Shown here in pieces: positions 466-4,236 of a stretch of DNA of 64,000 bases (position 1 is its first letter; every line of letters begins with the position of its first letter). A model generated the notes under the pieces. It did not search any database and had not been told where the DNA came from. It saw only the letters and a list, made by a program, of their open reading frames with translations. Origin of the DNA: a virus; IMG/VR virus record IMGVR_UViG_3300023175_000028, positions 3,473 through 67,472 of that record. The stretch is one strand, 5' to 3'. The translations under genes and the position numbers were made by a program.

Positions 466-1746
466 TTAAAATATCATACTAAACAACAAAGATCTATTTC
501 TACTTACAATCTCGTCGCTTGTATTGTTACTATTTACATAATATAGCCCTGTTTGGCCTGGTCCTTCGACTTTAGCATACATTTTAATACCTTCTACTGG
601 TGCTAAAGGATCAATTGCTAAATCGTTTTCATAAGGCGAAAAAGGTATTTCTAAATTATCATTAATTTTTACACTTCCAGTACCAGGTGCTCCTATTTCT
701 AAGTCTTGGTTACTTGAAGTTGTTGTAATTGCACTACCTTCAATTCTAATATCTTGCGTTTCAAATCTATCGTCATAAACATTAGTATTGTTTACACCGT
801 CTACAGTAATTTTAACCCTACTTGGTTCAAATCCTGTTTTTCTAACAGTACCTGAATTGATTACATAATTAGCAACATTTGCTCCTGTAGTATCAACATT
901 AACTCTAAATGCTGTAGCCGAAACAATTTCTGTTATTTGAATAGCTGTTCCATTCAAATTTTCAATTGCATCTCCGCTACTAACACCAAAGATATCTACA
1001 GTGTCAGCTGTATTAAATCCGTGCTGTCCTAATGTTTCTATTGTAGTTACACCATTTCCAGATGTTACAGAAACAATAGATCCTAAAGTATGCGTCTGGT
1101 CAATAATTTCTACACTTGTGTCACCTTCAGCAATCGTGTCATAAAATTCGTTAGCAAAAACATATTCAACGTAATCTTTAACTGCTTTAGCATTTGGAAT
1201 ATTATCATCATCGACAATAATTGCACCTGTAGTAGGATCTGGTGTAATAACACTATTTGCATAATTCCAAACTTTTTCTTCGTAGTTAACTGTGTTTGTA
1301 ACTGTAATTACGCCTGCACCTGTGTTTACATAAAGGTTACCTTGTGAAACAATTCCTGGAGTATTAATAGGAAGTTTTTGAGCACCAATTGTGCCTCTTC
1401 CTGTAATTGCATAAAATGTTCCTGTTCCTGAAGTACCGCCAAGGTCCCATGAAACTTGTTCATCGAATAACCATTCAGCATTTGGTAAATCACCACGATC
1501 AATTTCTATACCAGAAACATATCCTACACTTGCTGGTAATCCACTATCAGTTCCTGCGCTTAAAACAATTATGTTATCTGCAATAGTTACTACTGTTGAA
1601 TCAACTGTTGTAGTTGTACCTTTAACTTCTAAGTTACCTGTAATAACAGTATTTCCGACTAAGTCTCCGGTGTCAAGTTTTATTTCGCCGCCTGGTTGTA
1701 CAGCAACTTTGTAATTACTATTATATACTTTTACTACTCTTGACAT
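466..1746 (-). CDS. Virion structural / fibre-like protein
   Basis: 426 aa, Gly/Thr/Val/Asn-rich; ITGNLEVKGTTTTVDS and PNAKAVKDYV segments resemble those in the fibre protein at 47438. Confidence 0.6.
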   Translation of the reverse strand: MSRVVKVYNSNYKVAVQPGGEIKLDTGDLVGNTVITGNLEVKGTTTTVDSTVVTIADNIIVLSAGTDSGLPASVGYVSGIEIDRGDLPNAEWLFDEQVSWDLGGTSGTGTFYAITGRGTIGAQKLPINTPGIVSQGNLYVNTGAGVITVTNTVNYEEKVWNYANSVITPDPTTGAIIVDDDNIPNAKAVKDYVEYVFANEFYDTIAEGDTSVEIIDQTHTLGSIVSVTSGNGVTTIETLGQHGFNTADTVDIFGVSSGDAIENLNGTAIQITEIVSATAFRVNVDTTGANVANYVINSGTVRKTGFEPSRVKITVDGVNNTNVYDDRFETQDIRIEGSAITTTSSNQDLEIGAPGTGSVKINDNLEIPFSPYENDLAIDPLAPVEGIKMYAKVEGPGQTGLYYVNSNNTSDEIVSRNRSLLFSMIF

Positions 1747-1763
1747 TTAAAATTCCTTAGTAA

Positions 1764-1787
1764 ATTAGGGGAGTTGCCTCCCCTAAT
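1764..1787 (-). terminator. Intergenic hairpin (terminator or processing/stability stem)
   Basis: Perfect 10-bp stem ATTAGGGGAG/CTCCCCTAAT with GCAA loop on the minus strand; U-tract is weak. Confidence 0.55.
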
Positions 1788-1799
1788 ATATTTTTATCC

Positions 1800-2237
1800 T
1801 TACGGAGCGTCTACTGGATCGTCTGATTCAAAGTCGTCTGCATCTGGTGCGCCGTCAACGTTATCAATAGTTGCATCGTCACCTGCTTCTTCCATTTCAA
1901 CTGCGCCGTCAGATGTGCTGTCTGACATATTCCAAGCAATAGTTGCTCCTGTATCAAGCGTAACTTTACGTCCTGCAATTTTAGTTACTTGACGAGCAGT
2001 GCCGCCGTCGTCTTTAACTGTGATAGTCATTTCATCTGCACCTAAAGCGGCAGATGCTTTGTCTACTAAGAAACAATCCTTAGTTGTAGTACCGTCAGTT
2101 ACACGAAACTTTTTAGATCCTAACTGCTTTACGATCCATCCGTTTACTGATGCAGAACCATCATAGAATTGTACTTTGATTTCTTCGCCGCCTGCTGTAG
2201 GTGGTCCAAAATATCTTTTATTAAGTGGTCTTCCCAT
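1800..2237 (-). CDS. Hypothetical late protein with acidic C-terminus
   Basis: 145-aa ORF, AGGAGA RBS, GATAAATA late-promoter motif at 2341-2348. Confidence 0.7.
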   Translation of the reverse strand: MGRPLNKRYFGPPTAGGEEIKVQFYDGSASVNGWIVKQLGSKKFRVTDGTTTKDCFLVDKASAALGADEMTITVKDDGGTARQVTKIAGRKVTLDTGATIAWNMSDSTSDGAVEMEEAGDDATIDNVDGAPDADDFESDDPVDAP

Positions 2238-2340
2238 TTGTTTTCTCCTATATAAGTAGTCCTATCCGGGTTCTATCCGGTACGCTGTGGGTTAAACAGC
2301 ATAAGTCCGCCACATGATGCGGCTCGCTATCTGACATATG
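2238..2340 (-). promoter_or_regulatory. Structured 5' leader with three hairpins
   Basis: Stems CCGC/GCGG, GCTGT/ACAGC and CCGG/CCGG lie between the late promoter motif and the RBS; GC-rich relative to the genome. Confidence 0.5.
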
Positions 2341-2355
2341 TATTTATCAAAAGAG

Positions 2356-2390
2356 AAAAAAGGCTTACAAAGTTTCCCTTGTAAGCCTTT
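2356..2390 (-). terminator. Rho-independent terminator of the putative ncRNA
   Basis: AAAGGCTTACAA/TTGTAAGCCTTT stem followed by a T-run on the minus strand. Confidence 0.8.
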
Positions 2391-2397
2391 AATTGGA

Positions 2398-2615
2398 ATA
2401 AGCAAAATAGGGAGGATTCGGTTATACCTCCAACCCCTCGCCGCAGATACCATTCTGAAACCAGGGAGCCTGTTTCCGCTCGGTAGAGCGATGTGACACA
2501 GCGTATTTCTACTACCACGCCTGGGTACCACCCCTAAACAGCCAAGTTCGACGCTCTGGTAAACGCCTCTTCCTTGCACTATATACATTGGACCGCTAAA
2601 TCCTTTGTAGCTTAT
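2398..2615 (-). ncRNA. Putative ~218-nt structured non-coding RNA, family not recognised
   Basis: Own sigma70-type promoter and terminator; ends are complementary (AUAAGC/GCUUAU, AGGAUU/AAUCCU, CGGU/ACCG); nested stems ACCAG/CUGGU, CUGUUU/AAACAG, CGCUC/GAGCG, GCGU/ACGC; GC-rich; no ORF with a credible RBS. Confidence 0.65.
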
Positions 2616-2621
2616 GTATAC

Positions 2622-2649
2622 ACTATAACATCTTTTATAGTTATGTCAA
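2622..2649 (-). promoter_or_regulatory. Sigma70-type promoter for the putative ncRNA
   Basis: TTGACA-N16-TATAGT with a TGn extended -10; predicted start near 2615. Confidence 0.7.
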
Positions 2650-2747
2650 CCAGAAAAATACATTTTTTTTAAAAAAATGTCATTTATTTTTTTGATGTGG
2701 TGCTGTCTGATTAGTTGCTTGTAGCACCAAAGGGTATAGTTACTCAT
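2646..2747 (-). CDS. 33-aa peptide downstream of the glutamine riboswitch (MSNYTLWCYKQLIRQHHIKKINDIFLKKMYFSG)
   Basis: Strong RBS AGGAGGAG just before the ATG at 2747; stop TGA at 2648-2646; below the ORF-track size cutoff. Confidence 0.65.
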   Translation of the reverse strand: MSNYTLWCYKQLIRQHHIKKINDIFLKKMYFSG

Positions 2748-2774
2748 ACACTCCTCCTATTTAAAGGGTTAAAG

Positions 2775-2820
2775 TGCGTTCCTTCGCAATATGCTACTTC
2801 CGGCCGTTGGGCTGAACGTA
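2775..2820 (-). promoter_or_regulatory. Glutamine riboswitch (glnA RNA motif), minimal form
   Basis: UACGUUCA-GCC(CAAC)GGC-CGGAAGUA-GCA(UAU)UGC-GAAGGAACGCA: P1 CGUUC/GAACG, two short hairpins, and the GGAAGUA and GAAG E-loop strands of the glnA consensus. Confidence 0.85.
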
Positions 2821-2836
2821 ATATTATTTATCATTG

Positions 2837-2856
2837 AAAACCCGCCGAAGCGGGTT
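2837..2856 (-). terminator. Rho-independent terminator after pqqA
   Basis: AACCCGC-TTCG-GCGGGTT then TT on the minus strand (cUUCGg tetraloop). Confidence 0.8.
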
Positions 2857-2873
2857 ATTTGTAGTCTTGCGTT

Positions 2874-2945
2874 CTACTTGTTCATTACATACATTGTAAC
2901 TTCAAATCCAAAACGCATTTCTGTAAAAGTTGGTGTTGTCCACAT
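2874..2945 (-). CDS. pqqA: Coenzyme PQQ precursor peptide PqqA (MWTTPTFTEMRFGFEVTMYVMNK)
   Basis: 23-aa ORF with MW..P start and G-x-E-V-T-x-Y motif (E-x3-Y, the residues that form PQQ); RBS GAAAGGAGA; own terminator. Not in the ORF track. Confidence 0.93.
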   Translation of the reverse strand: MWTTPTFTEMRFGFEVTMYVMNK

Positions 2946-3019
2946 ATGCTTTCTCCTTTCACTTATTATTTAAACACAAATAAAAGCAAAAGTCATACGT
3001 ATAATCATTAAAAGGTCAT

Positions 3020-3049
3020 AAAAAAAGGGCAGTGTTGCCACTGCCCTTT
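3020..3049 (-). terminator. Rho-independent terminator of the major capsid gene
   Basis: AAAGGGCAGTG-GCAA-CACTGCCCTTT followed by a T-run on the minus strand. Confidence 0.85.
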
Positions 3050-3075
3050 AATTTTGTTATACTACTAAGTAGATC

Positions 3076-4236
3076 TTAGCTGAATGAAACGTTACCGTTA
3101 TCAATTCCAACAAGACCTAAGTAGTCAGCCGCGTTACCAAGTGAAGACGCAGTGTTTGACAACTCAACATAACCATAACGTGTCATAAATGATACGACTG
3201 GCTCGAATGATGATGGGTCAAGTACTGTTCCTGAGCTCATTAGCGGAATGTATGGGCAATAGAACGCTGCCGCATCTGATTCGCTTGAACCTTTGTAACC
3301 GATCAATACTGGTGCATTGTCTGCTGAGTAAGTATTAACGTATACTTTCATTGCGTTGTTTAAAGTACCAACCATCTTAGTGTTAGTAGGTGCTTCAAAT
3401 GTACCTTCAGTTGTACGAGCGAACGCTGAAGTAGTTGCTGACTGAAGAATTGTTAGCGCGAATGGCGAAACAACTGCCCAGTTACCAGCACCACGTCTTG
3501 TACGCTGTGCAATTAAGTTACTTACGCGGTTGATTTGAACTGCCAATGCGGCATGCTCGTCACCAACGAAAGTAGCTGTACCACTTACAGCCGCTTGGTC
3601 GTAAGTTTCAGCCGCTGTACCAGCAAGTGTTTGCAATGAAGCAAGTACTTCCTGATCAATTTCAGCAGTAATTTCTTGAGCAAGAGCAGCCATGATTTCT
3701 GCTTCAACATCAATACCGTGCATTGACTGAGCATCTTGTGCCGCTTCAAATGTCCAACGAGCACTCAACTTACGAGTTTTCGCTTCGACAGTTTGTTTCA
3801 AGATTTGAATTGACATTCTGTTACCAGCTTGTCCTTCAAGTGATGCAGTTGCATCTGCTTTACCGCTTGCGTTACCTGAATACGCTTCAGCAATTTTGAA
3901 TGGGCTTAGAGCCTCTTCACCTGCTGTAGCACCATTTGCTGTGTCGCTGTAACGAACACGTAGCGTATGGATCTGGCCCACAGGACCAGTCATTGGCTGT
4001 ACGCCTACCAACTCGTTAGCAATAACTGTTGGCATTACACGTCTGATCACTGGAAGGATCACACGATTTAGTGTTGCAACATTACCGGCAGAAGTAGCAC
4101 CTGCGGTTGCACTCTCTGACAAATACTTGCGTGTATTTTCAAGAGTTGTTTCCATTACCGCTTTTTTGTTACCTTGTAGGCCTTCAACAAGTGCTTGCTT
4201 AGTGTCCTGCCAGCGGCTTTCTAATAGTTCTGACAT
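3076..4236 (-). CDS. gp23: Major capsid protein, T4 gp23-like
   Basis: GVQPMTGPVGQI, KTRKLSARWTFEAAQD, EITAEIDQE, FYCPYIPL and MTRYG are gp23-family motifs. Confidence 0.96.
   Translation of the reverse strand: MSELLESRWQDTKQALVEGLQGNKKAVMETTLENTRKYLSESATAGATSAGNVATLNRVILPVIRRVMPTVIANELVGVQPMTGPVGQIHTLRVRYSDTANGATAGEEALSPFKIAEAYSGNASGKADATASLEGQAGNRMSIQILKQTVEAKTRKLSARWTFEAAQDAQSMHGIDVEAEIMAALAQEITAEIDQEVLASLQTLAGTAAETYDQAAVSGTATFVGDEHAALAVQINRVSNLIAQRTRRGAGNWAVVSPFALTILQSATTSAFARTTEGTFEAPTNTKMVGTLNNAMKVYVNTYSADNAPVLIGYKGSSESDAAAFYCPYIPLMSSGTVLDPSSFEPVVSFMTRYGYVELSNTASSLGNAADYLGLVGIDNGNVSFS

Follow-up and report, generated by a model that had tools for sequence, protein, structure and literature searches.

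Which RNA, if any, is encoded by the 218 nt that separate a glutamine riboswitch from a freshwater-2 RNA behind the major capsid gene of a virus, and does it serve as a gene in its own right or as a leader of its neighbour? The DNA analysed here, hereafter the window, is a stretch of 64,000 nt from IMG/VR record IMGVR_UViG_3300023175_000028 (positions 3,473 to 67,472). Its minus strand carries, in this order, the 3' end of a gp23 gene, a terminator, a PqqA mini-gene, the glutamine riboswitch with a 33-aa open reading frame (ORF), the RNA under study, and the freshwater-2 RNA with a 145-aa gene. A preliminary description, made from the letters of the window, had taken the 218 nt for an unrecognised RNA with paired ends and its own promoter and terminator, possibly the first of a new family, and had considered a 6S-like function. 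The two features that frame the question are the following.

2398-2615, minus strand: manA-family RNA core, 218 nt, from the P0 5' strand to the P0 3' strand (RF01745 match and covariation)
3076-4236, minus strand: gp23-type major capsid gene (Pfam Gp23, 335.9 bits)

A divergent member of the manA family

The manA family has been known since 2010 (PMC2864571). Its Rfam model, RF01745, matched the RNA at 2401-2607 on the minus strand and over the full length of the model (1-192 of 192), with 49.6 bits and an E-value of 1.6e-11. This score is 5.6 bits under the curated gathering score of 55.2, and the RNA is absent from the Rfam scan in gathering mode: at curated thresholds, only freshwater-2 and the glutamine riboswitch were reported. 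In E-value mode (2150-3100), manA came second by bit score among the 23 matches with E up to 10, and no 6S model was found among these 23.

Homologues were sought in 151 listed loci, of which L003-L151 had been retrieved from IMG/VR via two short words of the RNA, so that their number is to be read as an "at least". With the window RNA as query, nhmmer detected homologues at 118 of the 151 loci listed. Twenty loci were then sampled over the whole range of scores, and in 7 of these 20 the manA cut-off was exceeded at the very position of the homologue (57.5-62.4 bits). When ten of the loci below the cut-off were rechecked, eight showed full-length manA matches of 34.7-53.8 bits and two showed none at E up to 0.001. 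Among cultured phages, blastn returned one relative, Pelagibacter phage Mosig, with 77% identity. The Mosig copy occupies an unannotated gap just upstream of the rubrerythrin gene and scores 64 bits, above the manA cut-off. Much higher scores were obtained for P-SSM4 (184 bits) and P-SSM2 (182 bits); in all, 3 of 5 phage records had manA matches, and the covariance-model scan gave none in Syn9 and S-RSM4.

Since the sampled homologues grade without break into accepted manA members, the window RNA falls within a divergent manA clade. On this comparison of sequences, it belongs, as a divergent copy, to a family already known, and the view that it was unrecognised and might found a family of its own did not survive the full-length RF01745 match.

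Two observations on annotation came along with this survey. The manA gathering score of Rfam misses most of the sampled clade, as 13 of the 20 loci lie below it. In P-SSM4 (L159), the annotated CDS PSSM4_169.1 (164884-165057) overlaps the 184-bit manA RNA (164829-165014); it is probably an artefact of gene calling.

A covarying fold with an additional terminal helix

We aligned 80 distinct homologues with MAFFT, using hits with 4 nt of flank on both sides and dropping partial hits and exact duplicates; the alignment was not fitted to structure. Of the 37 pairs that RNAalifold predicted, 29 showed compensatory changes; the terminal helix accounted for three. A structure drawn by hand, with helices P0-P9 and 57 pairs, had 94.3% of its cells paired vs 76.8% in column shuffles. 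Both sides had changed at 44 of the 57 pairs, as against 31.1 expected, and on each of the five measures used, all 500 shuffles fell short. As a control, sliding the 3' partners by 1-3 columns left only 35-52% of the cells paired. A few P7 and inner P8 pairs were left out of the tested structure because MAFFT had misaligned them between subgroups.

The layout consists of P0, the P1 hairpin, and P2, which closes a junction with P3, P4 (carrying P5, P6 and P7), P8 and P9. The earlier picture of an interrupted stem capped by a multi-hairpin junction was thus roughly right. The single-sequence fold had an MFE of -69.6 kcal/mol and a z-score of -0.97, and 34 of 200 shuffles folded as well, so it is not unusually stable. 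The case for structure therefore rests on the comparison with relatives, which bore out the discrete structured RNA put forward in the preliminary description. The same holds for the pairing of its ends.

2610-2615, minus strand: P0 5' strand, AUAAGC, pairs with 2398-2403 (covariation)
2398-2403, minus strand: P0 3' strand, GCUUAU (covariation)

Indeed, among the 80 distinct homologues, five of the six P0 pairs change on both sides, and one column pair reads UA 38 times and AU 37 times. P0 lies outside the Rfam manA model, whose match begins at 2607, and it was not seen by eye in P-SSM4 or P-SSM2.

The fold bears on two other readings of the locus. The RNA could be a 6S-like decoy that would sequester the sigma70 holoenzyme and so aid the switch to late transcription, an idea of the preliminary description. 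By inference, such a role would suit its size, its paired ends, its early expression and the need of a phage to redirect RNA polymerase. However, the Rfam matches at E up to 10 included no 6S family, the fold is a branched junction of short hairpins with neither a long rod nor a central bubble, and the RNA also heads mRNAs in relatives (see below). We regard the idea as unsupported and a 6S-like function as highly improbable.

The conserved object could also be the overlapping 98-aa ORF (2292-2588) instead of the RNA, the alternative which the preliminary description had itself raised against its proposal. As a matter of fact, this frame is open in the window. Yet it has no Pfam match and runs through the terminator, an ATG-initiated ORF of at least 90 aa overlaps the RNA in only 5 of the 86 listed contexts described below, substitutions in the helices are compensatory, and single-base indels occur between homologues. 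The ORF was rejected as a gene for its lack of conservation and for the compensatory helix changes, and we give this reading practically no probability at all.

Predicted promoter, terminator and transcript

On the minus strand, the RNA is flanked by the following elements.

2644-2649, minus strand: -35 hexamer TTGACA of the sigma70-type (early) promoter of the RNA (sequence scan)
2622-2627, minus strand: -10 hexamer TATAGT, with a TG upstream (sequence scan)
2349-2390, minus strand: intrinsic terminator, a 14-pair stem-loop (2390-2359) and a T run, 7 nt past P0 (sequence scan)
2341-2347, minus strand: ATAAATA, a T4-type late-promoter-like motif outside the RNA, at the start of the freshwater-2/145-aa late unit (sequence)

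The two hexamers, 16 nt apart, have 11 of 12 matches, and the -10 ends 6 nt ahead of the predicted start at 2615. Taken alone, the site is not significant, since four promoter-like sites were found in 1700-3300 where shuffles led us to expect 4.4; the promoter carries weight because it is conserved in homologues, and not by its single-site score. For terminators, the scan found five sites as against 1.3 expected. The claim that the RNA has its own promoter was borne out by this near-consensus and conserved site, and the claim of its own terminator by the 14-bp stem and T run, which likewise found comparative support in the contexts below.

The motif TAAATA is the core of the late promoters of T4-like phages. 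At 2341-2347, ATAAATA would bound the RNA gene as the putative late promoter of the neighbouring unit. With this arrangement, the host sigma70 RNA polymerase would initiate at about 2615, the first base of P0, a start placed from the sequence. It would copy the 218-nt multi-hairpin core and then stop at 2390-2349. The primary transcript is predicted to span about 264 nt (2615 to about 2352), with ends and early timing that are predictions as well.

Free-standing gene or mRNA leader

To describe genomic contexts, we kept the hits flanked by 80 nt on their upstream side and by 60 nt on their downstream side; these 98 hits gave 86 distinct contexts among the loci listed. A hexamer pair scoring at least 10 of 12 was present in 82 of the 86 listed contexts, and the -10 ended 3-8 nt ahead of the projected 5' end in 71 of them. 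P-SSM4 and P-SSM2 show TTGACA, a spacer of 16-17 nt and TATAAT, with the first helix 5-6 nt later. On the other side, a terminator began 1-10 nt past the RNA in 44 of the 86 listed contexts, window included. These 44 terminators have 29 distinct stems, even behind nearly identical RNAs, and the terminator formed in the MFE structure of RNA plus terminator in 42 of the 44. TAAATA followed within 60 nt of the terminator in 37 of the 44, at a median of 11 nt past the stem, as against 2.7% of control 60-nt windows from the same loci. The genes past the terminator vary and include the MGRPLN gene with its freshwater-2 leader and genes for a cold-shock protein, a TonB-dependent receptor and a mannose-6-phosphate-isomerase-like protein. 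In one locus (L051:7737-9306), manA is placed inside an array of five same-strand tRNA genes, as a stable-RNA gene would be.

The other 42 of the 86 listed contexts had no terminator within 12 nt, and there the RNA mostly heads an mRNA. A gene for the gp32 ssDNA-binding protein follows in 24 listed contexts, its start codon 61-87 nt downstream; in other leader contexts, a rubrerythrin or redoxin gene begins about 20 nt downstream. Incidentally, two contigs with a gp32-leader manA also encode a permuted tmRNA of the alphaproteobacterial type (L045:2105-2378 and L077:4554-4828; 89-96 bits). On another contig, a sub-threshold match to the cspA thermoregulator was noticed downstream of manA (L048:54-394; 41.3 bits, cut-off 78). 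A cold-shock-type ORF (MSNQGK...) starts 226 nt after the RNA on that contig; the cold-shock domain was confirmed only on the homologue in L134.

Collectively, these contexts show manA as a module at the 5' end of transcripts driven by sigma70, and in the class of the window the module makes up the whole transcript. About half of the distinct copies in this large marine phage clade (44 of the 86 listed contexts) are genes that stand free, between a consensus-type host promoter and a terminator of their own. This is new as far as the literature naming manA RNA or RF01745 goes: full-text searches yielded no description of manA as a gene that stands alone and ends in a terminator of its own, and supplements may say more. 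Since a terminator and a late-promoter-like motif stand before the next gene, the manA of the window reads as a stand-alone early sRNA gene and not as the cis-regulator of the Rfam entry.

A classical cis-regulator was the main alternative to be considered. In such a case, a riboswitch-like aptamer and the terminator would form an expression platform, and a ligand would gate read-on into the freshwater-2 leader and the 145-aa gene. Promoter, structured domain, terminator and gene are indeed in the usual order, and manA was rated a riboswitch candidate by Weinberg et al. 2010 (PMC2864571). Moreover, the 42 of 86 listed relatives without a terminator within 12 nt are for the most part true 5' leaders, and some contigs from RNA libraries bridge the terminator. 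A switch of this kind would work by competition between aptamer and terminator, but we found no shared alternative pairing among the 29 terminator stems, and arm complementarity was no better than with shuffled arms. Duplex energies in the 44 listed contexts showed no excess complementarity between the RNA and the two arms of the terminator: z averaged -0.22 and -0.54, was 0.47 and 0.03 for the window, and fell under -2 in 2 and 4 of the 44, respectively. The predominance of the terminator in the MFE structures (42 of 44) and the late-promoter-like motif that the downstream gene, a different one from case to case, has of its own (37 of 44) also argue against gating. In the gp32 leaders, the distance of 61-87 nt between the RNA and the start codon leaves the ribosome-binding site outside the RNA. 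We conclude that a riboswitch-like function is unlikely. A full-text search of the literature naming manA RNA or RF01745 found no ligand reported.

A different cis role would be that of a 5'-end module of early transcripts, which would protect them from RNases or modify the polymerase so that it reads through terminators. There is a precedent in the put RNA of phage HK022, which modifies RNA polymerase to ignore terminators. The RNA always begins where a strong sigma70 promoter would start transcription, in P-SSM4 and P-SSM2 too, P0 pairs the very 5' bases, and terminator-bridging contigs exist, all of which would fit. However, a nine-helix fold with covarying loop partners far exceeds what a protective 5' hairpin needs, a strong terminator 1-10 nt behind an antiterminator, as in 44 listed contexts, would serve no evident purpose, and the RNA resembles no antiterminator RNA in Rfam. 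This second cis role seems to us quite improbable, more so than a riboswitch.

We thus return to a stand-alone early sRNA gene. Given that the downstream structural gene has its own late-promoter-like motif and a freshwater-2 leader, the most likely role of the RNA is one in trans, that of a folded particle, and not that of a leader controlling its neighbour. For the manA family as a whole, a cis role may still apply, given the 42 of 86 listed contexts without a near terminator.

Loop complementarity and a possible self-assembly

How a trans-acting manA RNA might work is suggested by its hairpin loops, which in the window are the following.

2555-2562, minus strand: loop L3, UUACCAGA, holds UACCA complementary to UGGUA of L8 and L5 (sequence)
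2526-2531, minus strand: loop L5, GUGGUA, candidate kissing partner of L7 (complementarity and co-variation)
2506-2509, minus strand: loop L6, GAAA, a GNRA tetraloop (sequence)
2482-2485, minus strand: loop L7, UACC, complementary to GGUA of L5 (sequence)
2448-2453, minus strand: loop L8, AUGGUA, candidate partner of L9 and L3 (complementarity)
2416-2426, minus strand: loop L9, UAUAACCGAAU, holds ACC complementary to GGU of L8 (sequence)

Three loop pairings are possible in the window, namely L5/L7 (GGUA:UACC), L8/L9 (GGU:ACC) and L3/L8 (UACCA:UGGUA). Across homologues, the L5 and L7 partners change together, for example to UGU:ACA, UGC:GCA or UAU:AUA. In a permutation test, which ignores the relatedness of the sequences, none of 2000 permutations gave a complementarity as high as the loops' own for L5-L7, and none for L8-L9. 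Among eight control loop pairs, seven were equalled in 533-1898 of the 2000 permutations; the eighth, L3-L8, was equalled in 43. Loop co-variation would look the same for intramolecular and intermolecular kissing.

Recent cryo-EM work on other members of the family, a July 2026 preprint that is not peer reviewed, describes a pentameric manA building block from which closed decamers, an octamer or a T=1 cage with 60 subunits and a size of about 430 A are made (10.64898/2026.07.01.735769). The block is held by the intermolecular kissing loops L5-L7' and L8-L9', and another member uses L6-P6' (GNRA-receptor), L5-L7' and L3-L8' contacts (10.64898/2026.07.01.735769). Assembly was obtained in vitro only, at about 3 mg/mL RNA and 10 mM Mg2+. 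The same preprint (10.64898/2026.07.01.735769) terms manA a putative cis-regulatory element and, in its main text, gives no biological setting for the cages: there, neither "terminator" nor "in vivo" is used, and the single mention of a "promoter" concerns the T7 promoter on the templates for transcription in vitro. With our labels L3-L9 mapped onto those of the preprint by hairpin order, a mapping that is itself deduced, the loop complementarities of the window would match the named kissing contacts. Among the homologues compared here, the loops that would make these contacts co-vary.

A strong early promoter would raise the concentration of the RNA, which would then self-associate into closed multimers via L5/L7, L8/L9 and L3/L8. 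We infer that the window RNA would multimerise in cells. Taken as a whole, the reading of the locus as a divergent manA RNA, transcribed from its own early gene and associating with itself into a particle, is one that we consider likely. A bolder version of it would have the RNA form, in infected cells and via L5/L7 and L8/L9, pentamer-based closed particles, up to capsid-like 60-mers, serving as an RNA-only compartment or sponge; in relatives with gp32, redoxin or rubrerythrin, the module would cluster those mRNAs on the particle. We put this version forward tentatively and think it doubtful. If true, it would provide a natural setting for the manA cages seen in vitro and overturn the "cis-regulatory" label of the family.

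Parts of the locus in RNA libraries

Parts of 2200-2900 occur in seventeen sequencing runs registered as RNA. Four salt-marsh metatranscriptome assemblies were considered (X1-X4, in this order below), and all four have contigs over the RNA body. Word depths were 402, 1269, 783 and 971 over the RNA body (2472-2559), 18-72 over the downstream gene (1900-2207) and 0, 0, 0 and 36 over 2604-2647; such contig depths cannot rank genes or give starts, ends or levels, and holes in them prove nothing. One contig extends 107 nt upstream through the promoter of a relative, and two others cross the terminator into the downstream sequence of a relative, so read-through or DNA carry-over exists. Many contigs stop at 2572, which is where relatives diverge; these ends are thus assembly breaks and not transcript ends. 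All in all, these contigs serve only as a hint of the presence of the element in RNA libraries.

Carrier phage and neighbouring elements

The whole 67-kb record holds a single manA copy. The gp23 of the carrier shares 72% identity with its counterparts in Sinorhizobium phage Phosso and Vibrio phage 2.275.O. The phages matched at this identity have genome sizes between 349 and 469 kb, and the completeness of the 67-kb record is rated at 17%. The window probably comes from a marine jumbo T4-like phage.

Several neighbours of the RNA deserve mention on their own account. A gene for a PqqA-family peptide of 23 aa lies at 2874-2945 on the minus strand (PF08042, 42.1 bits, cut-off 21.1), within the phage structural region and between a TAAATA motif upstream and the terminator at 2856-2839. 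PqqD was sought in the 67-kb record, about 17% complete, and was not found there. In the RNA libraries, contigs over the PqqA region (2868-2955) had word depths of 12577, 31, 6303 and 12504, very high in three of the four runs; at 90% likeness, they may include other organisms.

The glutamine riboswitch (RF01739, 47.5 bits; 2773-2820, minus strand) stands ahead of the 33-aa ORF (2646-2747, minus strand). This ORF has no Pfam match and runs at its 3' end into the manA promoter. A glutamine riboswitch, manA and freshwater-2 also follow one another in this order in two other loci (L005 and L070), and a glutamine riboswitch together with manA in two more (L020 and L139). On the other side, the freshwater-2 RNA (RF02980, 70.7 bits; 2235-2324, minus strand) forms the leader of the 145-aa gene (1800-2237, minus strand), whose product (MGRPLNKRYFG...) has no Pfam match. 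A freshwater-2 leader with an MGRPLN gene is found downstream of manA in many relatives.

Significance and comparison with known systems

For the window alone, the outcome is modest: one more member of manA. The stand-alone architecture has a wider bearing, as it touches on the function of a family that databases list as a putative cis-regulatory leader. A free and abundant RNA is what a concentration-dependent, self-assembling particle requires, and the architecture is therefore a pointer to an in-vivo role that can be tested.

Transcription-terminating riboswitches resemble the window RNA in their layout of promoter, structured domain and intrinsic terminator. They differ from it in that the window RNA shows no conserved competition between aptamer and terminator, and the gene downstream has its own promoter-like motif. 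The likeness to 6S RNA lies in the size range, the paired termini and the status of a small non-coding RNA; the window RNA has no covariance-model match to it, and its branched fold contrasts with the 6S rod and bubble.

ROOL and GOLLD are large phage-associated RNAs that have been reported to form RNA-only multimers via loop-loop contacts. They measure several hundred nt, belong to families unrelated to manA and have no known function. They have in common with the manA of the window that they are phage-borne, stand-alone and highly structured, whereas manA is under 220 nt.

The closest likeness is to the manA family itself. The window RNA agrees with it in full-length alignment, in the order of the helices, in conserved core sequences and in being carried by marine T4-like phages, and a consensus sigma70 promoter stands directly upstream, as in P-SSM4 and P-SSM2. 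It differs by its score, 49.6 bits vs about 180 for the cyanophage copies, and by the extra P0, which is absent from the Rfam model. Above all, Rfam gives the family the type "Cis-reg", whereas the copy of the window does not occupy a 5' UTR position and is followed instead by a terminator and a late-promoter-like motif.
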